DNA from: an uncultured archaeon
Lineage (GTDB): Archaea > Asgardarchaeota > Thorarchaeia > Thorarchaeales > Thorarchaeaceae
Length of the DNA stretch: 24,000 nucleotides
Assembly: GCA_964558645.1 (NCBI GenBank)
Contig: CAZLEV010000023.1
Coordinates: forward strand, 2,609-26,608
Reading direction: 5' to 3'
The position numbers were made by a program, and so were the translations under genes. The stretch's first letter is position 1. Each line of letters begins with the position of its first letter. Positions 2,012-15,930 of the stretch are shown here, piece after piece. The notes under the pieces were generated by a model. The model was given only the letters and a program-made list of their open reading frames with translations. It was not told where the DNA came from and did no database searches.

Positions 2012-2182
2012 CTAACCGAGATAAGGACACCGTCATCCGATTAGCCTTTTCTCGGGCTTGGAGTTGTCATTAGTTCCGCGAGAATACCATTTCTTTAAAT
2101 ACCGTTCTTACAGAAGTGCCAGAACAGGAAAGGTCCCCATAAAGAATAGTTTCTCTGTATTCCGTCAGAATCAGAGGTGGAA

Positions 2183-3103
2183 ATGATGAAGCCATTGCGA
2201 GTCCTATATCTCTGGAATACTGCGGGTGCTTTGACGCCTGTGGCCGATTGGTTACTCGATCATGGACATCAAGCTAGGATACTCATGAGTACAGAATATG
2301 ACCTCTTCGGAAGCACATCGTGTTCTGATGCGGCGCTCATGGTGGATTCGGTCATCTCATACTATCTGGAGGTCCTCCGACACCTTCTCGTCTTCCAGCC
2401 AACGCATGTTCATATCAATGCAAACATTCCCTCGCTGATATTGGCTCGACTGCTGAAACCGACCACTCCCATTGTTTTCCAGTACCATGGAATTGAGGTT
2501 CGCTATCGCGATAGGGTCCATCCCGAGATGGCATTGGCAGATAGAGTGATTGTATCCACGCCGGATCTGAGGGATTATGGTAGATGGTACGATCGTCCAG
2601 TTTCTAAGATGTTCTACTATCGTGGAGGTAGAGAGCCAAATACAGCGGTTATGTTCTATGCTGACTACTTCATGGAGGATCTCCGCAGAGAGGCTAAGCA
2701 ATGGTGTGAAGAGCGAAACATTGACCTCAGAATCATCCAGCGGGGCTTAGATCCTATCATCCCTTATGCAGAGATGCCTCAATTCCTATCGAAGTTTGAG
2801 TATTTCATGGACTTCAAAGGATATGGAGACCCCGAGGCGATCAGTCGACTGGCGCTTGAGGCCATTGCCTGTGGGTGCAAGATTGTCAGTGACACCGATC
2901 CGACACATGTAATCGATGACTACGATTTGCCCAAGCCTGAGGTTTACTACGAACTCTACACTGATATGAAACGCCCTCCATTATCTATTAATCGTCAGGT
3001 CATCGCTCTCCGTGGACTCATGAAGTGGGGTCTTGGCTCGCTCGCTCCGATCCCCCGACCTCCGCCCCAGCGTCAGTCATCGAATTTCCAGGAGAGGATT
3101 TGA
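2183..3103 (+). CDS. Divergent GT-B-fold (GT4-like) glycosyltransferase.
   Basis: The ORF is 2177..3103. GAGGTG at 2174-2179 looks like an RBS, so ATG 2183 or 2186 is the likely start rather than GTG 2177. The N-terminus 'LRVLYLWNTAG' is typical of a GT-B first strand. The C-terminal 'ISRLALEAIACGCKIVS' resembles the GT4 'fGl..lEAmAcG.PVV' nucleotide-sugar binding helix. The rest is not recognisable to me. Confidence 0.55.
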   Translation: MMKPLRVLYLWNTAGALTPVADWLLDHGHQARILMSTEYDLFGSTSCSDAALMVDSVISYYLEVLRHLLVFQPTHVHINANIPSLILARLLKPTTPIVFQYHGIEVRYRDRVHPEMALADRVIVSTPDLRDYGRWYDRPVSKMFYYRGGREPNTAVMFYADYFMEDLRREAKQWCEERNIDLRIIQRGLDPIIPYAEMPQFLSKFEYFMDFKGYGDPEAISRLALEAIACGCKIVSDTDPTHVIDDYDLPKPEVYYELYTDMKRPPLSINRQVIALRGLMKWGLGSLAPIPRPPPQRQSSNFQERI

Positions 3104-3151: not shown

Positions 3152-4291
3152 TTGAAACTCCTTGTTCTGGGACCATATGGTGAGACCACCAGTGGGCCCT
3201 CACGTGTTCTAACTGAGGTAGTTGAGCGTCTGCCCTCGGGATTCGAAGTTCTCGTTCTCTCGCCGCGAAGGCGATCTGAATACTGGCGATCGGATGAAGA
3301 TAGAGGGAACGTGAGAATCAGATTTCAGCCCTGTGGCCAAATCCCTGGATTGCCTATGTCACATCAGTGGCTAGAGATTCTTAGAACCAACCTAAAGCTT
3401 GCTGCTCTTGCATTCAACCCTGATTTGGTATGGACTCACAGCACGACACTCTTCACGGCCTATGCTCATAGCAGAATCCGGACCACTCCTGCTGTTGCCA
3501 CAGTGCACGGCGTATTCGGGGACTACTACCGAGCCGAAGCAGAACAGAGGTCAAGTGGGCTCTTGACCAATCTATTCGTCATGCAGAACTACCATTTGCA
3601 GAGATATGAGTTCAAGAATGCCGCCCATCTGACAACATACTCCGAATACTTGAAGAGCCTGATTCAAGAGGTGACCCCATCTGCAGAAGTCACTGTCATT
3701 CCTAATGGTGTCAATGTGGAGCGCTTTAGACCATCGGTAGATGACCGTGAGAGAGTCATCCTGTATGTGGGCCGAATGGCGAGAATCAAAGGAGTACATG
3801 TTCTCATCAGGAGCATGAAATGGGTGACTGAGAAGCATCCTGAGTGGCGATTATGGCTGGTTGGGGGCGCATTCGACCAACCTCGGTCCTTCTTTGAAGA
3901 CCACATGACCCCAACAACACGGAAACAGATTGAATTCCTCGGCCAGATTCCAAACGAGGAGCTTCCCGCCCTTCTCAGTCGCGCAGGCATTTTTGTTATG
4001 CCAACTCTGCGGGATGGCTTTGAGATAGCACTGATGGAGGCGATGGCCAGCGGGATTCCATGCGTCACGACTGGTGCTTACGAGCGCACGGAGCTCTATG
4101 GTGGCTACGCTGAAGCTGTTCCTCCTGGAGATGCACAATCTCTGGGTAGATGTCTGAATGAGGTAATCGGCCACTATGACGAATACACAGCAGACTCCGC
4201 CGTGGCAAGGAGAGTGTCCAGAGCGAGGGAGTTCTCTTGGTCCAAGATCGCAGATAGATATGCAGAGCTATTCAGGAGAGTGATTGAATGA
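3152..4291 (+). CDS. Glycosyltransferase family 4 (GT-B, retaining type).
   Basis: TTG start is preceded by GGAGGT at 3141-3146. The sequence 'VILYVGRMARIKGVHVLI...WRLWLVGGA...IEFLGQIPNEELPALLSRAGIFVMPTLRDGFEIALMEAMASGIPCVTT' is the canonical GT4 C-terminal domain, including the E-x7-E motif. Confidence 0.85.
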   Translation: MKLLVLGPYGETTSGPSRVLTEVVERLPSGFEVLVLSPRRRSEYWRSDEDRGNVRIRFQPCGQIPGLPMSHQWLEILRTNLKLAALAFNPDLVWTHSTTLFTAYAHSRIRTTPAVATVHGVFGDYYRAEAEQRSSGLLTNLFVMQNYHLQRYEFKNAAHLTTYSEYLKSLIQEVTPSAEVTVIPNGVNVERFRPSVDDRERVILYVGRMARIKGVHVLIRSMKWVTEKHPEWRLWLVGGAFDQPRSFFEDHMTPTTRKQIEFLGQIPNEELPALLSRAGIFVMPTLRDGFEIALMEAMASGIPCVTTGAYERTELYGGYAEAVPPGDAQSLGRCLNEVIGHYDEYTADSAVARRVSRAREFSWSKIADRYAELFRRVIE

Positions 4292-5073
4292 CCAATGTGG
4301 CGATTATCATTCCCGTCTTTTACCGTGAACACCTCAAAAAGGCGATCCGCTCGGTCTTGTTAAACGATTGTGATGTTATACTCGTCAACGACTCCGATGT
4401 GCCGTTGACATATGAGCACCCTCGAGTGACCGTCATCGACAATGGAATGAATCTAGGTGTCGGTATTTCCCGCAATCGAGGAGTTAGAGCAGCCCTTGAT
4501 GTCGGATATGATCTTATTGGATTTGTCGATTCTGATAGTGTTCTGTCGCCGACTTGGCGAAGGGAATGCGAAAAGACTCTCCAAGACCCATCTATCATCG
4601 GCGTATCAGGACTCGCACTGAATCCCAATCAACCGTCCACAATCGCCAGAGTGAAGTATGTTCTGAAGGACTATAGCCGACGCAAGTCCATTCCGTTTCA
4701 GATAGACTGCTCACTCTTCAAGCGAGAGGCCTTCGCTCATGCTAGTTTCGGAAAAAGGCGAATTGCTGAAGACGCATTCTTCCTGCGTCAAATAGACAGG
4801 AGTAGGCTGGCGGTCAATGAGGATACAATCTCGTATCATCACGAAGTGGACTCTGTGAGCGATTACTTCAGAAAGGAAATCGTGGGGGCACTGTATTCTC
4901 TCTCAGAGCCATTGAGTGTGGCACGCAGCTTCTTCCTGACTCCTTATACCTGCATGAAGATGGTTCTGCGGAAAGACCGACATCCTGACTATCCGATTGC
5001 GGCCCTTATCTGGCTGATTCGTCAGGTGGCTTGGAATCTTGCATATGTTCTGGGTAGGATGGCTGATATCTGA
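4288..5073 (+). CDS. Glycosyltransferase family 2.
   Basis: The start overlaps the upstream stop in ATGA (4288-4291), suggesting translational coupling. 'VAIIIPVFYREHLKKAIRSVL...VILVNDSD' and 'IGFVDSDSVL' (a DxD-type motif) are GT2 (GT-A fold) signatures. Confidence 0.8.
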   Translation: MTNVAIIIPVFYREHLKKAIRSVLLNDCDVILVNDSDVPLTYEHPRVTVIDNGMNLGVGISRNRGVRAALDVGYDLIGFVDSDSVLSPTWRRECEKTLQDPSIIGVSGLALNPNQPSTIARVKYVLKDYSRRKSIPFQIDCSLFKREAFAHASFGKRRIAEDAFFLRQIDRSRLAVNEDTISYHHEVDSVSDYFRKEIVGALYSLSEPLSVARSFFLTPYTCMKMVLRKDRHPDYPIAALIWLIRQVAWNLAYVLGRMADI

Positions 5074-5088
5074 CTCACATGCTTGAAT

Positions 5089-6309
5089 TCATCTGAAACC
5101 TAGCAGTTGAAGCAGATACTCATAGACCCGTTCGGATGCACCAGGCTTCTGGTACTCATTAATCAGCCGATTCACCTGTCTTCGTTGCTCAGCGTATTCA
5201 TCGGATTCCCACAATGCCTTCTCTATGGCTCTTTGAAATACGGTGAATGTGTACACCTTCTCCCCGGGACACCAGAAATCATAGTCTGGATAGCATAGAC
5301 TCTCTCTCTCAAGGAAGTCGTCCAAGTCATATGGAACGAAGATCATGGGTCGATCCAGTAGCATGAAGTCGCTTTGGATGGAGGAATAGTCATTGATGAG
5401 CAGGTCCACTTCAGGAAGAACTTCGGCTATGTCCGGTTGTAACGCGTAGGGGAGGTTCCGAATATGGTGTGTTTCCTTGACCTCTCCCCCGTCTCCTTCG
5501 TGGGAACGGATGAGCATGAGAATCCTCTTCCCCGCACACCATTCTTCTAGTGCATCTGTCGTGAAATCCTCAAAGGGAAAGAACCTGACAGTGCCTTCAG
5601 TTCTCCAAGTCGTTGCATATAATAGAACCTTGTCATATTCAGGCAGACTAGCATACAATGTGGGTATTTTCTCTTTCCACCTCGACTCATCCAAGAGATA
5701 ATCACACCTAGGATATCCTAAAGATAGGATTTGAGTTGGGTGAAGGGCGTGTGCATACGCTCTCATGTATGAGTCCAGACGTGAACATGTGAGAAAGGCA
5801 GTAGTGTACTGCATCCAATGCTCTGAGTCTTGGAGCATCTCTCTTGTGAACTTCTTCGAGGCATACCCATCTGCTTTGGGCCCGTGCCCATGCCAGAGAT
5901 GTATCACATACTTCCTCTTGGATGGCCGCAGGTTTCCCATGTCCCCCAAGCTGTTTGTCATGAGAATAGTCTTTGCTCTAAGAAAGAGGTGAACTGTACC
6001 CAATGATGGTCGTCGTATACACCTCTCGTACGGACTATCGGTATGATGATTCAAGAAGAAGTAGCACCGAAACGGATGACCTTCTCGATGCGCGATATAT
6101 TCGAATAGTGCCTTCGAGTTTCCGGACGGATACGACCCACCTCGCGAGCCGAAGATTAGAATCGTCGAGTCCTTTGGCCATATATAGTCTAGAAATTGGA
6201 TAATCCGTCGGAACCCTTTGGTGAGTATCTCTCTGAAGCGCATTCTCATTCTCTCCGTTTCTGAGGTGTCCTTTGGTTGGTCAGGCTGACTCGCATCTTG
6301 TTCCAGCAT
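5089..6309 (-). CDS. CDP-glycerol/CDP-polyol phosphotransferase, TagB/TagF family (Glyphos_transf).
   Basis: 'KVLLYATTWR', 'LMLIRSHEG' and 'VDLLINDYSSIQSDFMLLDRPMIFVPYDLDDF...YPDYDFWCPGEKVYTFTVFQRAIEKAL' match the conserved C-terminal core of teichoic-acid glycerophosphotransferases ('lyaPTwR', 'LITDYSSv.fDf..l.kPiif...D...Y', 'pG'). Confidence 0.8.
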   Translation of the reverse strand: MLEQDASQPDQPKDTSETERMRMRFREILTKGFRRIIQFLDYIWPKDSTILIFGSRGGSYPSGNSKALFEYIAHREGHPFRCYFFLNHHTDSPYERCIRRPSLGTVHLFLRAKTILMTNSLGDMGNLRPSKRKYVIHLWHGHGPKADGYASKKFTREMLQDSEHWMQYTTAFLTCSRLDSYMRAYAHALHPTQILSLGYPRCDYLLDESRWKEKIPTLYASLPEYDKVLLYATTWRTEGTVRFFPFEDFTTDALEEWCAGKRILMLIRSHEGDGGEVKETHHIRNLPYALQPDIAEVLPEVDLLINDYSSIQSDFMLLDRPMIFVPYDLDDFLERESLCYPDYDFWCPGEKVYTFTVFQRAIEKALWESDEYAEQRRQVNRLINEYQKPGASERVYEYLLQLLGFR

Positions 6310-6325: not shown

Positions 6326-7081
6326 TCAGGCCCAATAGCCCTCTTCGAGGAGCTCAGCGGCCCAATGCAGATCTGTGGGGGTATCGATGTCCTTCCATAT
6401 AGCCCCCTCGACTGGCTTTACATAGAATCCCCGCTCCCTACTCGACTGCTTGTGGACGTATTCGCTGAGTGATCTCTTGTCTTTTGGGAGGTCAGCTATG
6501 ATTTCAAAAGCATCTTGAGTCAGTTTGAAGATGCCCATGTCAATCATGTTCCACTGCGAGATATTCTTTCCGATTTTGACTAGCCTATGATTCTTCTCAG
6601 AGAGGATCTTGGTTGCATCGGCCAGATCCAGATAGTCCGGAATGCCTTCATTTCGATATTGTGCGCAGACATAGGGCGTGTTGACTGTGTCAGTAACGAC
6701 ACATTTTCGGTAGGTTGCAGGAGAGAAGAGGTGGTCTGACATCTGGAGGATAAACTCCTCATTAGACAGGAGGCCATCGCACGCTAGCAATGTGGCCGCA
6801 TTTCCATCTTGCCAATCCTCTGATTTGACCACTACCACATTATCATAGAGATGGCCTTGGCTCTCAACATAGTCAACCATAGTTTCATAGTGGATGCCTA
6901 CGGATATGAAGAGCCTGAAGTCCCCTCTTAGACAGACATCAATCGTCGAAACAATGTGATCGAGAATGGTCTTGTTCTCCAGCTCCAATAGGGTCTTGGG
7001 AATTTCTTGGTGTATTTCTTCAAGTCTTATTCCCAGACCCCCTGCGACAATAACAATCTCTTCCATCAGCATCGACACCAT
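6326..7081 (-). CDS. Sugar/alcohol-phosphate nucleotidyltransferase of the IPCT/LicC type, probably a CTP:polyol-phosphate cytidylyltransferase.
   Basis: 'IVIVAGGLGIRL....PKTLLEL' is the NTP_transferase G-loop. 'FILQMSDHLFS', 'ATKILSEKNHRLVKIGKNISQWNMIDMGIFKLTQDAFE' and 'IWKDIDTPTDLHWA' parallel the archaeal inositol-1-phosphate cytidylyltransferase domain as I recall it ('FILTMGDHVYS', 'EATKI...V..IGK.L...D..DTGFFVL', 'LWMDVDTKEDV'). The true start could be an internal Met (MLMEE.. or MEE..). Confidence 0.75.
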   Translation of the reverse strand: MVSMLMEEIVIVAGGLGIRLEEIHQEIPKTLLELENKTILDHIVSTIDVCLRGDFRLFISVGIHYETMVDYVESQGHLYDNVVVVKSEDWQDGNAATLLACDGLLSNEEFILQMSDHLFSPATYRKCVVTDTVNTPYVCAQYRNEGIPDYLDLADATKILSEKNHRLVKIGKNISQWNMIDMGIFKLTQDAFEIIADLPKDKRSLSEYVHKQSSRERGFYVKPVEGAIWKDIDTPTDLHWAAELLEEGYWA

Positions 7082-7162: not shown

Positions 7163-7708
7163 TTATTGAAGCCCGTCGCTTCGGTCTGATCGTGTGGTTT
7201 CATCAGACTCACTGTATATGTCAGAAAAGGGATGTTTCGCTACATACTCCTCACGCAGTTCAATCGCCCTGTCGATGTCTTCTCTGATTTCTGGCCGGAA
7301 GCCCTCGAGTTTGTTATAGTACTCTCTAGTCTCTGCAATGGCGGTCTTGTCTAGGTTGAACTCGTCTGCCAACTGCTCACTCACATCGAGCATGGTTGCA
7401 TAGATGGGCAACCAGAGTATTCTATCAATTGGACGTGGAACATATTGGAACGGGTTACGTTCCTGTGTCACTTCATGAGACGGTGCCCACATGACGAATA
7501 CTCTGTCATAGATATAGCCCCCTACTAGAAAGAAGACAAAGAGAGTCACTGAGAACGCAATCGGCCCCCAAGCACCGAGCCCGGCGAATATTGGGATATA
7601 TCCAAAGTACGCATATGCCAACATGAATGTGCTGAAGAATAAACCCCAGATCCCTCTGATTTGTACAAGTCTCCATTGTTGTTTCATCAACCATTTTCTT
7701 AGTCCCAT
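7163..7708 (-). CDS. Uncharacterised membrane protein: a single copy of the 2-TM 'ERNP[YF]xYVP' module.
   Basis: Two hydrophobic helices (IWGLFFSTFMLAYAYFGYIPIF and PIAFSVTLFVFFLVGGYIY) are followed by 'YDRVFVMWAPSHEVTQERNPFQYVP' and an acidic helical tail. ATG at 7708-7706 lies 3 nt after the upstream stop (TGA GAG ATG). It is a clear paralogue of both halves of the adjacent gene. Confidence 0.7.
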   Translation of the reverse strand: MGLRKWLMKQQWRLVQIRGIWGLFFSTFMLAYAYFGYIPIFAGLGAWGPIAFSVTLFVFFLVGGYIYDRVFVMWAPSHEVTQERNPFQYVPRPIDRILWLPIYATMLDVSEQLADEFNLDKTAIAETREYYNKLEGFRPEIREDIDRAIELREEYVAKHPFSDIYSESDETTRSDRSDGLQ

Positions 7709-7711
7709 CTC

Positions 7712-8824
7712 TCATCCTCTCACTGTTTCAAGTCGCTCATCTAAAGGTTCGAAAACTGCTCCCAATTCAGACCTCAACCTCTGTGCCTCGAATAGGTCTT
7801 CATTTCGTGTGACGCTCAGTTGCAGGTACTCGTGAAGATACAATGCGAGCCTATCAATCACTATCGTATCCATATCATGGCTCACAAAAAGCTCTCGTAG
7901 AACCGCGAAGAATGTATGGTAGATAGGCAGCAGTAATGCATAGTTTCTGGGTTCAGGAACATAGCTATAGGGATTACGCTCGATATTCACGATTTGTTCT
8001 GGTGACCAGAGTACTAGCTTTCTGTCATAATACCAGCCCGCAATGGCCATGCCGACGTACATCGGTACAGACAACATCAGTATCCCTCGAAGCAAGTAAT
8101 CCAGCGGAACAAGGTCGCCGTAGGGGGTGGAAACCACGACATTCGGGTAAAGAAGTGTAACGAAGAGTGCTCCAAAGATAAGGACATCCTGGGCCAGCCC
8201 GGAAAAAGACTGGATATAATTGACCCTGAGGACCTCGAGCTGAAATCTCTTCTTTGCCTTGGCGCCTAGGCTTGCCTCTTTATTGGATGCCTTCCTTGGA
8301 CGATTGAACGGGTGTTGTTCAAGGAACTCCTCAGCGAGCTCTTCTGCTGAGAAGAGATCATCCTTATTCTCAGGATTCCTCCGGAAGAAATCATCCAAGT
8401 ACACACTGAGGTCCAGTATGGTCTCAGCCGGTAGGTTCAGCTTCTTGAACAACCTGTGCAGTGTGTCAAAGATAACATAGGCTGCGGGATAGTCGATTGC
8501 TAGCGCTCTGAAATCCGGCACATATGAGTAAGGGTTCCGCTCCAGTCCCACCTGCACCGACTCTTTCCATAGTCGGGCTCTCTCGTCGTACGCCCAGCCA
8601 ATGATAAGAAACACAAAGATCAGAATCACCGCTAATACCAACGCACCGATTAGACCCAGCGAGTCTAGTATTGGGACATATGGTGAGTAGAATCTTCCAA
8701 GTGTCAGCATGCCGAAAGCGAGGGCTAGAAGAGTCCTGATACTGCCAATGCGCCAATATTGTTTCATCAGCCACTTAGATTTCGTCAACCGGCGACCGCC
8801 TCTGTCTTGCTTCGATGAAGTCAT
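7712..8824 (-). CDS. Uncharacterised membrane protein: a tandem fusion of two 2-TM 'ERNPYSYVP' modules.
   Basis: The longest ORF runs to 8953, but I prefer ATG 8824-8822 (MTSSKQDRGGRRLTKSKWLMKQYWRIG). This N-terminus aligns with the paralogue's MGLRKWLMKQQWRLVQIRG, and it removes the overlap with the divergent GT2. It contains 4 predicted TM helices and two copies of G-W-x-YD-x5-W-x9-ERNPYSYVP. Confidence 0.7.
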   Translation of the reverse strand: MTSSKQDRGGRRLTKSKWLMKQYWRIGSIRTLLALAFGMLTLGRFYSPYVPILDSLGLIGALVLAVILIFVFLIIGWAYDERARLWKESVQVGLERNPYSYVPDFRALAIDYPAAYVIFDTLHRLFKKLNLPAETILDLSVYLDDFFRRNPENKDDLFSAEELAEEFLEQHPFNRPRKASNKEASLGAKAKKRFQLEVLRVNYIQSFSGLAQDVLIFGALFVTLLYPNVVVSTPYGDLVPLDYLLRGILMLSVPMYVGMAIAGWYYDRKLVLWSPEQIVNIERNPYSYVPEPRNYALLLPIYHTFFAVLRELFVSHDMDTIVIDRLALYLHEYLQLSVTRNEDLFEAQRLRSELGAVFEPLDERLETVRG

Positions 8825-8870
8825 AATATAACGCTTCCCACGATTCAGCGGTTGTCCCTCCATAGAGAAC

Positions 8871-8880
8871 CGATTATAAG
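8871..8880. promoter_or_regulatory. Near-palindromic TATA-like box (CGATTATAAG) in the divergent intergenic region.
   Basis: It lies about 35 nt upstream of ATG 8912 (+) and about 50 nt upstream of ATG 8824 (-). GGAGGT at 8893-8898 on the plus strand and GGAGGGA on the minus strand are RBS-like. No transcript data are available. Confidence 0.3.
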
Positions 8881-8911
8881 GCACGAGTTCAGGGAGGTAG
8901 ACGAGCACTCT

Positions 8912-9859
8912 ATGACAGGTGACACCCAGAGCGATGCATATGTCCCTTTCCATGAGTACTGCAGATACTGCACTACCCGTTGTACTGCACCCCCATCGAC
9001 TTCATCTCAATACGTGTTGGTCACTAACGTATGGAATGAGGAACCAAGGATAGAGCGGGCCTTCGAGTGGATGATGCACCAATCACGAAAACCCTTGGTC
9101 TGGCTGTGGATTGACGACGGGTCTACAGACGGCACATACGAGGAAATCAAGCACCTGTCAGAAGAACACCCCGAACTCAAGGTTTGGGTTGAGCGTATGC
9201 CCATGAAAGAACAGGGCAATCTCAATACAATCGGAAATGCTTACACAGAACACATGCCCGGTTTCATCAAGAGGCTAAGGGGGCAGAGCGTAGACTATTA
9301 TGCAATCCAAGATGTCGGCACGCAGCCATGTCCCAACTACTATGCCCGTATCATGCATCTGATGGATGAGCATCCAGAGATTGGAGCGTCGTCAGGCTAT
9401 GTCATTGGAGAGGAGCGGGCACGAGAATCCGGCATGCCCATGGGAGACTGTAAGGTGACTCGCTGGGAGATTATTCGTGAGATTGAGGAATATTGGCCTC
9501 TATCCCCTGACACCTTCGTGAATATCAAGACGCTCAAGAGAGGATGCCGCTTGAAGATCTGGGCCATCCCTGTTTTTCAAGATGAGCCCTCCTTCGGCAC
9601 CACTGCACGGGGTATGTTCTATCAGGGTCAACTGAACTACTTCGTGGGCAGACCCTTTCTTGGTGTTCTACTCAGGGCTCTCCGCAGATTATTTCTTCGT
9701 CGACATGGGACTGATATGCTCAGGGGGTATCTCTACGAACGGGAGAAGCAGACATGGCGGTGCGAGGATCCTGATGTGCTTGAGTTCTATGGCCACGGAC
9801 AATCACCTCTGTGGGTAATATGGAACTTGCTCAAAACACGTGGCCGCTATTCTGATTAG
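8912..9859 (+). CDS. Glycosyltransferase family 2 (divergent).
   Basis: 'YVLVTNVWNEEPRIERAFEWMMHQSRKPLVWLWIDDGSTDGTYEEIKHL' matches the GT2 N-terminal 'v.iP.yNEe..i......l.Q......i.vvDDGStD.T' signature. The longest ORF starts at 8852. ATG 8912 is preferred because of the upstream TATA/RBS-like elements. A GTG or TTG start near 9012 is also possible. Confidence 0.7.
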   Translation: MTGDTQSDAYVPFHEYCRYCTTRCTAPPSTSSQYVLVTNVWNEEPRIERAFEWMMHQSRKPLVWLWIDDGSTDGTYEEIKHLSEEHPELKVWVERMPMKEQGNLNTIGNAYTEHMPGFIKRLRGQSVDYYAIQDVGTQPCPNYYARIMHLMDEHPEIGASSGYVIGEERARESGMPMGDCKVTRWEIIREIEEYWPLSPDTFVNIKTLKRGCRLKIWAIPVFQDEPSFGTTARGMFYQGQLNYFVGRPFLGVLLRALRRLFLRRHGTDMLRGYLYEREKQTWRCEDPDVLEFYGHGQSPLWVIWNLLKTRGRYSD

Positions 9860-11707: not shown

Positions 11708-12172
11708 CTATATCGGAAGATTGGGAGTCTCTTTCACTCGTCTGAATACAGAGATGGTCTTTGTCTTTGTTATACCCTCAACGTTTCTCAGCCGTCTTAT
11801 CACGAAGTTGCCGACATCTTCGATGCTCCGAGATCTTATCTTCAGTAACAGGTCCCAGTCCCCAGCGATGATGTAGACTTCAGATATCTCTGGAAACTCG
11901 GACAGTCTCTCAGCCACGACCTCTTGGGAGAACTCAGAGCCGGGAGGATATCCCACAGACACCAGCACGAGAGCTGTAGTTGGCAGCCCCACTTCGGTCT
12001 CGTTCAGTATTGCCGTATAGCCCTTGATTATGCCTCGTTCCTCCATGCGTTTCACCTTATCGTAGGCAGTGGTTGCAGGGATGCCGAGTGTTTTTGCAAT
12101 CTTTGTGATCGGTTGTCTACAGTCCTGTTGCAGCAACCGCAGGAGTTTCAGGTCGGTTTCGCTGAGTTCCAT
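11708..12172 (-). CDS. Lrp/AsnC-family transcriptional regulator.
   Basis: 'MELSETDLKLLRLLQQDCRQPITKIAKTLGIPATTAYDKVKRMEERGIIKGYTAIL' is the HTH_AsnC motif and is followed by a RAM domain. ATG 12172-12170 gives the normal length of 154 aa. The 208-aa ORF-track version adds an implausible N-terminal extension that overlaps the divergent gene. Confidence 0.85.
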   Translation of the reverse strand: MELSETDLKLLRLLQQDCRQPITKIAKTLGIPATTAYDKVKRMEERGIIKGYTAILNETEVGLPTTALVLVSVGYPPGSEFSQEVVAERLSEFPEISEVYIIAGDWDLLLKIRSRSIEDVGNFVIRRLRNVEGITKTKTISVFRRVKETPNLPI

Positions 12173-12183
12173 GACAACCGTAT

Positions 12184-12232
12184 TAATTACGCCATTGCAG
12201 ATAATATTTGTGCTAATTACGGAACCATTACG
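12184..12232. promoter_or_regulatory. Repeated TAATTACG boxes in the divergent Lrp/asparagine-synthetase intergenic region; candidate operator sites.
   Basis: TAATTACG occurs at 12184-12191 and 12214-12221, exactly 30 bp apart. A third partial copy, ATTACG, is at 12227-12232. A TATA-like GTTATAATT is at 12248-12256. GGAG at 12308-12311 precedes ATG 12318. Confidence 0.3.
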
Positions 12233-12317
12233 ATTATCTCGTGGTAAGTTATAATTGCCTTCCGCTCTGCTTGTAGTCAGGTGAACAGAATGACGAAGGC
12301 GAGATACGGAGCGGACT

Positions 12318-13292
12318 ATGAAAACCTTCAGCACTGCTCATATTGAAGACTATCTAGCTGTAAGGTCTGAGCGGGCCAAAGCCATGCTCAAGGTACAGCA
12401 CAGCGTGATGTCAGGCATCAGGTCGTTTCTCGAAGACCGTGGTTTTGTTGAAGTTGCGCCAGTGATACTCAGCCCTGTGACCGACCCGGGAATCCGAGGC
12501 GCAGAAACGGCGTCCGTCGACTTCTATGGTACGAAGTATCGACTCACAACGAGTATGATACTGCAGAAGCAGATGCTTGTTTCGGCTCTCGATAAGATCT
12601 TCATCTTCTCTCCATGCATCCGTCTAGAGAAACATCTCACAAAGCGACATCTTGCTGAGTTTCTGCAGGTTGATGTAGAGGTCGCACACGGTTCCCGCGA
12701 TGAAATTATGACTCTGGCTGAGAACCTTGTTGCCGCCGCAATCAGGAGTGTCAAGAAGACCTCTGCTTCTGAACTCGAAATACTGAACAGAAGAATCAAG
12801 GTACCAAGGACTCCTTTCAAGAGGATCAGACATCAGGAGGCAGTGACTATGGCAAGAGAGCTGAGCTGCCCTAGCGACGTCGAAGGTGAGTTGTCCTTTG
12901 AGGCTGAGACTGCGCTTTCCTTGCAGCACGGAGAACCGCTGTGGATTGTGGACTACCCGGTTGAAGCGAGAGGTTTCTACTACAGGAGCCATCCGGGCAA
13001 TCCGGGAGAACTCAGGGACTTCGACCTCATCTTCCCTGAGGGGTTTGGCGAAGGGATTTCTGGCGGCGAGCGGGAACACCGATATGAAGTCGCTCTTCAG
13101 AGAATCAGACAGAAGGGACTCGCCCCTCGTGACTACGGCTGGTACCTCAATATGCTTCATGAGGGCATACCTCCCTCGGCCGGCTTCGGAATAGGTCTGG
13201 AGAGGTTGACTAGGTATGTCTGCGGGCTGGATGATATTTCGGAGGCTACCGCCTTTCCAAGAAGGCCCGCAGCTATGAACCATCGCGATTGA
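12318..13292 (+). CDS. Archaeal-type asparagine synthetase A: a class II aaRS (AsnRS/AspRS-like) catalytic core without an anticodon-binding domain.
   Basis: Class II motifs are present. Motif 1 region: 'IRSFLEDRGFVEVAPVILSP'. Motif 2: 'FSPCIRLE'. Motif 3: 'GFGIGLERLTRYV'. The protein starts directly at the catalytic domain with no N-terminal OB fold, at 324 aa. This matches the AsnRS-paralogue asparagine synthetases described in Pyrococcus. Confidence 0.75.
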   Translation: MKTFSTAHIEDYLAVRSERAKAMLKVQHSVMSGIRSFLEDRGFVEVAPVILSPVTDPGIRGAETASVDFYGTKYRLTTSMILQKQMLVSALDKIFIFSPCIRLEKHLTKRHLAEFLQVDVEVAHGSRDEIMTLAENLVAAAIRSVKKTSASELEILNRRIKVPRTPFKRIRHQEAVTMARELSCPSDVEGELSFEAETALSLQHGEPLWIVDYPVEARGFYYRSHPGNPGELRDFDLIFPEGFGEGISGGEREHRYEVALQRIRQKGLAPRDYGWYLNMLHEGIPPSAGFGIGLERLTRYVCGLDDISEATAFPRRPAAMNHRD

Positions 13293-13422: not shown

Positions 13423-14436
13423 TCAGTATGGCGATCTCATGAGGGACGGAAGAACCTGTGGCACTGACAGGAACAGTCCAATAAGTCGATGTCCGATTTT
13501 GTATGCGAGAGATTCATTGTCGGGGAGAATCAGGTCTGCAATCCTTCCTCCCTTGAAGAAGTAACTCTGCCCTGGAATCAGCCGCCCCTCCAGAATTGGT
13601 GCGGCGAAGATCTCAGTGAGGCGGAGGATGAGCGTTCTGACCACCCGTTGTCTTACCTGTCGTGCAAGGCGTCGTGCCCGCAGCAGCAACGACATGATCT
13701 TCTTTGCCCTGAGCGTTGCGTATCCTGCGTCTAGGATGCGGTCAAGGAAACATCTATCGTCGGGACCGAGCCCGACGCCGAGAGCATCCATCTCCTCCCT
13801 GGTCACATTGATATAGCCCGCATCGTAGTCGTTCTTGATATCCAGCAGGTCATCGAGCATGCCTAGTCCCATGCCAAGTGTGTATGAAAGCTCGTCAATA
13901 CAGCCACCCAAGTCGTAGTCTGACAGGATGAAATAGAGTTTGAAGAACGACCTCGCCTTCTTGTAGAGAAGCCTATCCATATCACTCTGTGACATGAGAA
14001 CTCCCTTTCTCTCTACGTCACCCCACGCACTCTGGTAGAGATCCATGACCACCTCAATTGCCTCGCCACCATAGAATTCTCTCTCGTTCTCGAAGAACTG
14101 AGAGAGCCATCTGTGCCGCAGTGGTGCTGTCCTGTCAAGCTGGAGGTCTCCCGCAAGACCCCTCTCCACCACATTTCTCTCGCCTTCCAGCATCGCGACG
14201 GCTTGCGCCTTGGTCAGTCCGGGGGCATCGAGCATATCATCAAAATTACGGATGTAGCCCCATGCTAGCGACCATGTTTCTGAGCCTAGAGGTTCAGGGA
14301 CAAGCTGTGATGCATAGGTCAAGAAGTCTCGTTGTCGCAGATAGCTTCGTGCCAGATTCACTGTCGACGTGTAAACAGAAGATGCTCGTAAGGCGGGAAT
14401 TTTGTCTTGCATGGGATGTCCATGTAAGGTATTCAC
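13423..14436 (-). CDS. Squalene/phytoene synthase family (head-to-head isoprenyl diphosphate condensing enzyme).
   Basis: Two Asp-rich motifs are correctly spaced: 'YIRNFDDMLDAPG' and 'GMLDDLLDIKNDYDAGYINVTREEM'. Confidence 0.75.
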   Translation of the reverse strand: MNTLHGHPMQDKIPALRASSVYTSTVNLARSYLRQRDFLTYASQLVPEPLGSETWSLAWGYIRNFDDMLDAPGLTKAQAVAMLEGERNVVERGLAGDLQLDRTAPLRHRWLSQFFENEREFYGGEAIEVVMDLYQSAWGDVERKGVLMSQSDMDRLLYKKARSFFKLYFILSDYDLGGCIDELSYTLGMGLGMLDDLLDIKNDYDAGYINVTREEMDALGVGLGPDDRCFLDRILDAGYATLRAKKIMSLLLRARRLARQVRQRVVRTLILRLTEIFAAPILEGRLIPGQSYFFKGGRIADLILPDNESLAYKIGHRLIGLFLSVPQVLPSLMRSPY

Positions 14437-14515: not shown

Positions 14516-15067
14516 CTATTGACCGAGCCTTGCCCGTGCAGTCCGCCGAATCTCTTCAATCGCCTCAATAATGCCTTCGTAGTGCTCTACTAGTTCGTCC
14601 TCTTTGAGTTGGATGGCGTGTGCCTTTGCTTGGTCCAGCAGGGCTATCACTTCAGTGGAGTTTCTCAGAATCTCCTGGTCGAGCTTTCGTTTCTTCTTGT
14701 CAGCAAGATTTTCGTCATATTCTCCTACCGTCTTGGCAAGCTTTGTTCGCTCTTTGGCGATCTTCTTCTCAAGTTTACGGATATGCTTCTTGTCTGCATC
14801 CGCCTCAACCACAGGCACCTCTCTATACTCATCCTTCTTCTCGAGGCCGAGTATTCTCTTCAGGTCACTTCTGAAGAAGCTGACAATCAGGCCAACGAAA
14901 ACCGCGAAGACGCCTGCGATGAAACCCCCGATGCTTGATAATTGATAGGCAATGATGCTAATAACTGTGAGAATGACAATGAGCCCAAGCAGACCTCTCC
15001 AAGGGATGTTCGATGCTTTATCGTTCAACGTTGTTCTCCCACTTGACGAGCGGAGGGCGTATTGCAT
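14516..15067 (-). CDS. Hypothetical membrane protein: 2 TM helices plus a Lys/Glu-rich coiled-coil tail.
   Basis: The TM helices are 'LLGLIVILTVISIIAYQL' and 'GGFIAGVFAVFVGLIVSFF'. A charged helical region follows (KKHIRKLEKKIAKERTKLAKTV...). I do not recognise a family. Confidence 0.55.
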   Translation of the reverse strand: MQYALRSSSGRTTLNDKASNIPWRGLLGLIVILTVISIIAYQLSSIGGFIAGVFAVFVGLIVSFFRSDLKRILGLEKKDEYREVPVVEADADKKHIRKLEKKIAKERTKLAKTVGEYDENLADKKKRKLDQEILRNSTEVIALLDQAKAHAIQLKEDELVEHYEGIIEAIEEIRRTARARLGQ

Positions 15068-15234: not shown

Positions 15235-15930
15235 TCAGTTTGTTTTCAGGAAGAGGATTTCCACCAGAACGGAGAGGGCTGGTGGAATCAGTCCTGCCGT
15301 CAGAACTACGAAGGAGAAGACTCCCATCCCCATAGCAGCAAGAACAGTGACGACAGGTACTGTTGTCCACATGGCGGTATTCGCGAATCCAGACTGCTGT
15401 CCGAGGACCGGGAACAAGGCTCTCCGTTGGGCCATCGACAGAGCAAAGAATCCCAGGATGAGCATCCCGATGCCCAGACCTAGGGACTGAACACTGCTGA
15501 TCGCATTCAAATCTATGAGAACCGCTATATCTCCGAAAGGATGCAGCCCACCGATGACCAGATATCCTGCGGCATTCATCAGACACCAGAATGCAAGCCA
15601 GACACAGGGCACAGTGAGCCAGCAGTCCGGTCTTCTTGCTAGTAGGTAGACCACTAGAACGAGAGTCAAGGCACCCGTGGCAATGATTCCGCCAGCATAG
15701 AGCCAGGCTCTCTGCCACACCTCCAACGAAGGAATTGCCCACTGTATGTGTGAGAGTTCATACGGCCACAGGACACTGATATACACAGATTTGATTCTTC
15801 CACCAAAGAGCATGACAAAGAGCCCATGGCCTATCACTTCATGTACGAACTCAGACACCAGTTTCATGAAGAATGCCGAGAGTAGGAAGAGCACCACCAG
15901 ACGCTCTCTGACACTTACCTTCTTCTGCAT
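15235..15930 (-). CDS. Polytopic membrane protein with an M50B-like 'HEVIGHG..FGGRI' segment; possibly a variant or inactive intramembrane metalloprotease-like protein.
   Basis: It has 6-7 hydrophobic helices. 'FVHEVIGHGLFVMLFGGRIKSVYI' resembles the Peptidase_M50B 'vHElGHalaallfGGrv' block, but the spacing is HExxxH rather than HExxH. The overlapping ORF 15191..15742 in another frame is Cys/Arg/Ser-rich and looks spurious. Confidence 0.55.
   Translation of the reverse strand: MQKKVSVRERLVVLFLLSAFFMKLVSEFVHEVIGHGLFVMLFGGRIKSVYISVLWPYELSHIQWAIPSLEVWQRAWLYAGGIIATGALTLVLVVYLLARRPDCWLTVPCVWLAFWCLMNAAGYLVIGGLHPFGDIAVLIDLNAISSVQSLGLGIGMLILGFFALSMAQRRALFPVLGQQSGFANTAMWTTVPVVTVLAAMGMGVFSFVVLTAGLIPPALSVLVEILFLKTN

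Follow-up and report, generated by a model that had tools for sequence, protein, structure and literature searches.

A conserved three-module membrane protein pair in Asgard glycan gene islands is a candidate component of cell-surface glycan assembly

Contig CAZLEV010000023.1, from a Thorarchaeota metagenome-assembled genome (MAG), contains two adjacent genes, here termed A and B, that together encode three copies of one module with two transmembrane (TM) helices and an ERNP[YF]xYVP motif. We analyzed the 24,000-nucleotide stretch of this contig in which they lie (the window), along with relatives of both proteins in other genomes. The module belongs to no described family at HMMER or Foldseek sensitivity and is thus new at that sensitivity. 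Its association with glycan biosynthesis genes is real, as supported by comparative genomics, and the pair, itself a real feature, is an uncharacterised candidate for a component of Asgard cell-surface glycan assembly. The most economical reading of its role, which we hold tentatively, is that B and A form a platform in the membrane on which soluble transferases, or the lipid-linked acceptor of these enzymes, are positioned.

Gene A encodes a single module, while B is a fused tandem of an N-terminal (BN) and a C-terminal (BC) module (Table 1). Both are on the minus strand, and the TGA stop codon of B (7712-7714) is separated by 3 nucleotides (nt) from the ATG of A at 7708. This arrangement had been described in a first-pass annotation of the window, and its coordinates read back as given, with the ERNP motifs beginning at 8542 and 7981 in B and at 7462 in A. 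Every copy was also said to end in HPF, which is true of A and BN but not of BC, which ends ...LGAVFEPLDERLETVRG. In the AlphaFold model, the TM helices of BC are linked by a longer outside loop with a small β-hairpin. The true start of B is ambiguous. Its open reading frame (ORF) extends to 8953 (7712-8953), with candidate ATG codons at 8953, 8863 and 8824, the first of which was chosen by gene callers and the last in the first-pass annotation. Orthologues of B start MSKxKW, and initiation from a TTG at 8788, which would yield MTKSKWLMKQYW, matches these N-termini better than initiation from any of the three ATG codons. A TTATAA-like element lies near this ambiguous start, at about 8874-8881.

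We compared the split modules pairwise at the protein level. A and BN share 34% identity over 166 amino acids (aa; E 8.5e-26), A and BC 35% over 107 aa (E 2e-18), and BN and BC 33% over 157 aa (E 5e-20). BLASTP of A against whole B gave two separate matches, to B residues 60-217 (35%, E 6e-29) and 290-396 (35%, E 7e-18). This likeness is far above chance and is not a chance pattern; the three are copies of one module, as had been noticed from the sequence. Over aligned codons, the DNA of the modules is 40-47% identical, and third positions are near random (26-38%). Because the DNA is fully diverged, the duplications must be old, in agreement with the earlier proposal. In a rough neighbor-joining tree, A, BN and BC each form their own clade, grouped as ((A,BN),BC), and hence both duplications took place before the sampled Thorarchaeota radiated. 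Heimdall-type single-module proteins are the outgroup closest to the Thorarchaeota triple in this tree.

Gene A had 120 matches, corresponding to 119 distinct relatives at 49-80% identity plus the identical sequence, and gene B had 59 orthologues of about 345 aa (34-61% identity). Nearly all of the named matches come from Thorarchaeota MAGs, and every one is annotated as hypothetical and lacks a precomputed Pfam domain. Among species-representative genomes, a scan that used close A orthologues as the query, and is hence biased towards Thorarchaeota, returned 25 loci, all in Thorarchaeota or Promethearchaeota MAGs. In all 24 of the representative loci with upstream DNA, as well as in L003-L005, a two-module B lies immediately upstream of A and reads in the same direction, the two genes being separated or overlapping by a few nt. 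The invariant B-then-A architecture therefore suggests a complex of fixed stoichiometry. One MAG (LCG1B.521) carries two separate B-A pairs on different contigs (L012 and L020); the other genomes showed one. For the least saturated orthologue pairs, dN/dS ratios are 0.08-0.27. These values indicate purifying selection, consistent with the inference drawn at first from the motif. Gene A is slower evolving, with a median nonsynonymous divergence (pN) of 0.26 versus 0.39 for B, and encodes the most conserved of the three modules.

When a profile of the module was run against 1.84 billion representative proteins, 193 clusters were found at E<=1e-3, 84 of them at E<=1e-10. Cluster members beyond Thorarchaeota A and B are single-module proteins of 150-220 aa, and the family follows the pattern [KR]K[WF]xMxxxWRxxQ, two TM helices, G[YW]xYD[RK]xxxxW and then ERNPY. 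The first-pass annotation had proposed looking for the module among archaea; the named hits are archaeal and, specifically, every named cluster member is Asgard, the few named relatives beyond Thorarchaeota being Heimdallarchaeota or 'Asgard group archaeon'. No relatives were found among deposited phage genomes or IMG/VR contigs, and a literature search found no description of the family. One distant relative (L007) consists of two adjacent single-module genes that overlap by 4 nt. This is a two-subunit version; Thorarchaeota have three modules, and Heimdall-type loci a single gene. A 438-aa protein (P0199) has a B-like N-terminal part, comprising one module and the start of a second, joined to a polytopic C-terminal half that resembles a cation/proton exchanger; it is probably no genuine fusion but a chimera that arose in assembly or gene calling.

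Searches for a known family were uniformly blank, in line with the initial failure to assign the module to one. Scans of Pfam-A, NCBIfam, PHROGs (phage families) and PADLOC (anti-phage defence families) gave nothing above threshold for A, B, BN, BC or ten distant relatives; in Pfam-A, hmmscan matches were considered at E<=10 for the first four and at E<=1 for the relatives. The best hit of the module profile among all PDB sequences had an E value of 0.42. The best Foldseek matches in the PDB had E values of 8 (A) and 1.6 (B), no TM-score exceeding 0.16, and for A against BFVD (viral predicted structures) the best E value was 3.5. The only sub-threshold profile match, between gene A residues 120-168 and positions 69-117 of DUF6015 (PF19479; E 0.0089, 16.8 bits versus a cut-off of 27), is seen in neither B module, covers only part of the variable cytoplasmic helices and is regarded here as noise. 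CDP-alcohol phosphotransferases (PF01066) were considered because the nucleotidyltransferase encoded next to A resembles the inositol-1-phosphate cytidylyltransferase (IPCT) domain of IPCT/DIPPS (DIPP synthase) proteins; there is no Pfam match to the family, whose members have six TM helices in a single chain, and its motif, DxxDGxxAR...GxxxDxxxD, is absent from the sequences. PglC-like monotopic phosphoglycosyl transferases and the small flippases GtrA and ArnE/F were ruled out by helix number, motifs and the absence of profile matches.

AlphaFold models of A (pLDDT 91.7) and B (pLDDT 84.4, pTM 0.70) show two long TM helices per module, six altogether, plus a helical C-terminal domain, and so agree with the helix count made from the sequence. 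In the model of A, a single long helix, made up of the amphipathic basic N-terminus and TM1, spans residues 3-37. Beyond a loop of about 7 residues comes TM2 (residues 45-71), with GGYIYD at its end. W74 lies on a short helix at the interface (residues 74-84) that ends in E83; the RNPFQYVP loop and four terminal helices (residues 93-116, 122-135, 142-158 and 163-179) come next. The loop between the TM helices is uncharged; it is longest in BC, at about 25 aa, against about 7 aa in A and BN. The module N-termini contain 5-9 Lys/Arg and at most one acidic residue (isoelectric point, pI, about 12), and the C-terminal domains are acidic (pI 4.5-5.2). The positive-inside rule is an established basis for reading membrane topology from charge. 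Given these basic N-termini, we therefore infer an N-in/C-in topology, in which the ERNP loop and the helical domain would face the cytoplasm.

The distal helices vary, and conservation peaks in four other elements: the N-helix, the TM2 end, the interfacial helix and the ERNP loop. Throughout the family, R13, D68 and W74 (A numbering) do not vary; ERNP is nearly invariant, with variants (LRNP, DRNP, ERHA and EKNP, and YRS-Y in P0307) in some relatives and some BN modules. No conserved charged or polar residue lies inside the bilayer; all six TM helices are uniformly hydrophobic, with no polar path.

The genomic context of the pair points to glycan biosynthesis. Across Thorarchaeota loci, the B-A pair is constant and the neighboring enzymes vary. 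A Pfam census of the 91 proteins encoded within two genes of the pair in these loci included UDP-sugar dehydrogenases and sulfotransferases (five each); UDP-GlcNAc 2-epimerase, Glyphos_transf, GT1 and NTP_transferase (four each); GT2 and GNAT acetyltransferases (three each); and NeuB, Polysacc_synt_2, CTP_transf_3 and PIG-L (two each). The window's combination of nucleotidyltransferase and TagF-like gene recurs in L004, L009, L010 and L032; in the first three of these, the same nucleotidyltransferase gene comes after A. The GT2-like gene next to B in the window also recurs beside the pair in several loci, and Alg14 and Alg13-like genes are present in Thorarchaeota islands carrying the pair. 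A family of soluble proteins of ~470 aa (457-515 aa), with invariant ELQHG and KLHP motifs, is encoded no more than four genes from the pair in nine Thorarchaeota loci and adjoins it in eight (Table 1). Its members match only the NCBIfam 'BFO_1060 family glycosyltransferase', and weakly (E 3e-10), with no Pfam or PDB match; they are putative glycosyltransferases. The idea that they are TagF-like, which would give the pair a universal partner, was rejected (hhalign probability 1.8%).

Distant relatives (about 20-30% identity) provide a stronger test, because synteny inertia cannot hold at this level of divergence. Glycan genes lie beside the module in eight of nine such contexts. In a Heimdall locus (L033), the module is followed after 28 nt by a TagF-like gene, then a nucleotidyltransferase and a GT1 gene. 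The TagF-like protein is 29% identical over its full length to that of the window (E 6e-49), and the nucleotidyltransferase is also homologous (E 2e-15). These matches indicate that the trio of module, TagF-like enzyme and NTP_transferase is common to Thor and Heimdall. Elsewhere, the module lies between GT2 and GT4 genes in a long co-directional glycan operon (L034), is overlapped by 4 nt by a GT4 gene (L035), precedes a nucleotidyltransferase gene and a CDP-glucose-dehydratase-like gene (L036), or is found beside NUDIX, GT10, epimerase, DegT and GT11 genes (L037). In L007, the two module genes are followed by an NAD-dependent sugar epimerase gene, and in L006 the module adjoins DegT and ATP-grasp genes; in all four of L036, L037, L007 and L006 its neighbors include nucleotide-sugar enzymes. 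A 292-aa protein encoded after the module in L036 was also considered as TagF-like; this was ruled out, and the product resembles CDP-glucose 4,6-dehydratase. The L035 contig, with many small co-directional ORFs, a helicase and a Cas4-like nuclease, resembles a mobile element or virus, the viral link being only a suggestion. The exception among the nine is L038, where glycan genes are absent near the module.

One explanation of the variable surroundings is that the pair has nothing to do with glycans and is a housekeeping Asgard membrane protein, involved for example in membrane organisation or stress, that sits at the edge of a hypervariable glycan island. Neighbors do change from genome to genome, and the conserved flank seen in several loci (HD, MoCF_biosynth or TatD genes) suggests a syntenic anchor beside a variable region. 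L038 is also in keeping with this idea, as are the membrane-organisation genes SPFH and NfeD, which lie on the other side of the pair in the window. The distant contexts argue against it: modules at about 20-30% identity adjoin or overlap GT, TagF-like or nucleotide-sugar genes in differing arrangements, for which synteny inertia cannot account, and the trio common to Thor and Heimdall comprises homologous enzymes. We therefore regard a role outside glycan assembly as rather doubtful. The first-pass annotation had tied its proposed function to an association of homologues with glycosylation genes, and such an association, with Glyphos_transf included, is what the distant contexts show.

How might a platform work? 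B and A would be co-translated integral membrane proteins that supply three paralogous two-TM modules (six TM helices), probably as one hetero-oligomeric complex in the Thorarchaeota cytoplasmic membrane. In each module, the basic N-terminal amphipathic helix would lie on the cytoplasmic face, and the hydrophobic hairpin would cross the membrane and return. The interfacial helix and ERNP[YF]xYVP loop would be held where the membrane meets the cytoplasm, and the chain would continue into an acidic cytoplasmic domain of four helices and about 90 aa. Such a platform may serve the cytoplasmic stage of glycan or polyol-phosphate assembly, either by recruiting or orienting soluble transferases (TagF-like, GT4, GT2 and others) at the membrane surface or by presenting their polyprenyl-phosphate-linked acceptor. 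The tethering logic would be analogous to that of DPM3 or Alg14 with their soluble catalytic subunits.

Several observations speak for a platform. Among them are the invariant B-then-A architecture, the glycan context and its retention by distant relatives, and the precedent of DPM3. The complex would bring together a hydrophobic six-helix anchor, a highly conserved surface at the cytoplasmic interface and three variable acidic helical domains. The products of the island's enzyme genes are predicted to be soluble proteins, and in most loci the 10 kb around the pair encode no polytopic membrane protein. TM helices devoid of conserved charged residues also fit, and variable distal helices would be expected if these bind changing partners. 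Other observations weigh against it. No single enzyme family is always adjacent, and hence no specific partner can be named; one distant relative, L038, lacks a nearby glycan gene altogether. Conservation is strongest at the membrane interface and not in the distal helices, where partners would bind, a pattern that would also fit lipid-head-group binding or a catalytic site. Bacterial TagF-type enzymes bind membranes unaided. Lastly, a Pfam scan found no sequence relationship between the module and DPM3 or Alg14.

In a more novel reading, B and A would be a new kind of membrane machine of three paralogous two-TM subunits, confined among named sequences to Asgard archaea, that handles polyprenyl-phosphate-linked intermediates directly, by flipping, exporting or interface catalysis. 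We consider this fairly unlikely. If true, the machine would supply the membrane step of Asgard surface-glycan or polyol-phosphate polymer synthesis, with a fold unrelated to Wzx, ABC, GtrA or DedA.

In one specific version, the three-module, six-TM complex performs the translocation step, as a new flippase or exporter for a polyprenyl-phosphate-linked glycan or polyol-phosphate polymer. Recognisable Wzx, ABC or Wzy genes are absent from the window's island and, in most Thorarchaeota loci, from the surrounding 10 kb; a constant pair with varying enzymes is what one would expect of a generic downstream step; and the invariant R, D and W residues and ERNP motif lie at the interface, where a lipid-phosphate head group would enter. 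Yet the helices offer no conserved charged or polar residues within the bilayer, and the outside loops are just 7-25 aa long. Many distant relatives are single two-TM genes, and a few loci (e.g. L016 and L021) do have 10-12-TM proteins of unrecognised type nearby. A flippase could also be encoded elsewhere in the genome, making its absence from a 24-kb window weak evidence. Translocation thus appears unlikely. It was on this absence that the first-pass annotation had based its suggestion that the pair supplies a 'missing membrane step'; the uniformly hydrophobic helices and the change of immediate partner enzymes between genomes count against that suggestion. Of the two options put forward at the time, a scaffold seems to fit the modeled anatomy better.

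Catalysis is the other version. Here the module is a small membrane-embedded enzyme (e.g. a transferase, phosphatase or modifying enzyme) that acts on a lipid-linked intermediate at the cytoplasmic face, with an active site of Asp, Arg and Glu-Arg-Asn. Over about 190 clusters, the best-conserved residues are indeed a few charged or polar ones at the interface (R13, D68 and E83-R84-N85), the distal domain is poorly conserved, and there is tight operon coupling with enzymes that make activated donors. Against this, profile, PDB and Foldseek searches found no similarity to a known enzyme family or fold, and the motif is degenerate in some relatives and some BN modules, a looseness incompatible with a strict active site. 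It would also be unusual for an enzyme to be retained as three diverged copies in each complex. We judge this version to be quite improbable. Roles beyond those considered here (platform, translocase, enzyme or a function unrelated to glycans) take up the remaining probability.

In the window, the pair is surrounded by four glycosyltransferase genes and a TagF-type phosphotransferase gene (Table 1). All five had been recognised at the outset, and profile matches were found for each, two of the glycosyltransferase matches being weak. The best NCBIfam resemblance of the nucleotidyltransferase is to an IPCT domain (E 2.9e-26, far below the family cut-off). Given this resemblance to the archaeal IPCT/DIPP synthase cytidylyltransferase domain, the TagF-like enzyme may draw on a CDP-polyol donor that is not CDP-glycerol. 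Farther from the pair, three consecutive minus-strand ORFs have no Pfam match. Another gene encodes only the catalytic core of a class II aminoacyl-tRNA synthetase (D/K/N type), too short for a full synthetase, and its start overlaps the end of a divergent Lrp/AsnC regulator ORF.

Table 1. Coordinates of the module genes, their neighbors in the window and selected features of other loci
Feature	Position	Strand	Description
Gene A	7163-7708	minus	ORF, 181 aa; single two-TM module
ERNPFQYVP motif of A	7436-7462	minus	read in sequence
Gene B	7712-8824	minus	fused tandem of two two-TM modules; 370 aa from ATG 8824
BN	8273-8824	minus	KWLMKQYWR basic amphipathic helix, two TM helices, GWAYD...W...ERNPYSYVP, acidic helical domain ending HPF
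ERNPYSYVP motif of BN	8516-8542	minus	read in sequence
BC	7715-8272	minus	RFQLEVLRV helix with conserved Q..QD patch, two TM helices, GWYYD...W...ERNPYSYVP, helical domain without HPF
ERNPYSYVP motif of BC	7955-7981	minus	read in sequence
GT4-like glycosyltransferase	2177-3103	plus	weak match
GT4/GT1 glycosyltransferase	3152-4291	plus	profile match
GT2 glycosyltransferase	4288-5073	plus	profile match
TagF/TarL-like polyol-phosphate transferase (Glyphos_transf)	5089-6309	minus	co-directional; E 2e-53
Nucleotidyltransferase (NTP_transferase)	6326-7081	minus	co-directional, directly downstream of A
GT2-like glycosyltransferase	8852-9859	plus	divergent from B; weak match; gene callers start it near 9074
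Lrp/AsnC regulator ORF	11708-12334		
Class II aminoacyl-tRNA synthetase core	12318-13292	plus	324 aa
ORF	13423-14436	minus	337-aa soluble protein
ORF	14516-15067	minus	183 aa; N-terminal hydrophobic helices, charged coiled-coil-like tail
ORF	15235-15930	minus	231 aa; about six hydrophobic segments
~470-aa family member	L003:10521-11939	minus	
~470-aa family member	L018:10529-11932	minus	
~470-aa family member	L021:10677-12050	minus	
~470-aa family member	L027:7324-8733	minus	
~470-aa family member	L030:10512-11936	minus	
~470-aa family member	L019:3494-4939	minus	
~470-aa family member	L014:7159-8640	minus	
~470-aa family member	L005:3288-4835	plus	
Two-gene distant relative	L007:10001-11157		adjacent single-module genes
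GT4 gene and single-module gene	L035:6799-8465		mobile-element-like contig

No known organisms are more closely related to eukaryotes than Asgard archaea, whose glycosylation machinery serves as a model in work on how the eukaryotic system arose. The module defines a well-conserved membrane protein family, its named members all Asgard, that is found in surface-glycan clusters from Thorarchaeota to Heimdallarchaeota. It combines a confidently predicted fold unlike any solved structure with an unusual, fixed 'two fused plus one' set of three paralogous modules. Whether platform, translocase or enzyme, the pair would be a part of archaeal glycan assembly that current pathway schemes lack, and it offers a concrete target for multimer modeling, heterologous expression and cryo-EM.

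Known systems offer partial parallels. Polysaccharide co-polymerase (PCP)/Wzz- and Wzx-type components are likewise membrane proteins without catalytic domains that are encoded inside polysaccharide clusters, and PCPs also have two TM helices. However, PCPs bear a large extracytoplasmic domain between these helices, whereas the module has a loop of 7-25 aa and its soluble domain, after TM2, is predicted to be cytoplasmic. Flippases of the Wzx/MOP or MurJ type have 10-14 TM helices and a charged cavity, in contrast to two per module, six in total, and no conserved intramembrane charges. No Pfam profile match to Wzx/MOP, MurJ or Wzz (PF02706) was found for the module. Alg14, which anchors the split Alg13/Alg14 GlcNAc transferase, matches the proposed platform in concept, being a membrane-bound subunit that recruits the soluble half of a glycosyltransferase to a lipid-linked acceptor. 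Yet Alg14 is the Rossmann-like half of a GT-B fold with one TM helix, while the module, built of helices alone and with two in the membrane, finds no Alg14 match in Pfam.

DPM3, which works with DPM2 in the eukaryotic dolichol-phosphate-mannose synthase, provides another parallel. Its coiled coil tethers DPM1, the soluble GT2 subunit responsible for catalysis, to the membrane (PMC9633384). The working model for the pair follows this arrangement. The differences are considerable. Neither DPM3 (PF08285) nor DPM2 (PF07297) is matched in Pfam by A, B, BN or BC (E<=10) or by the ten distant relatives (E<=1). At twice the length, the module adds a basic amphipathic helix at the N-terminus, the ERNP loop at the interface and a domain of four helices, and it comes in three paralogous copies. 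In place of DPM1, it would partner various GT-B or TagF-like enzymes. Nevertheless, DPM3 is a small protein that acts in lipid-linked glycan biosynthesis, and its layout, an anchor of two N-terminal TM helices followed by a cytoplasmic helical domain, is also that of the module as modeled and as read from its charges, a resemblance of architecture only.

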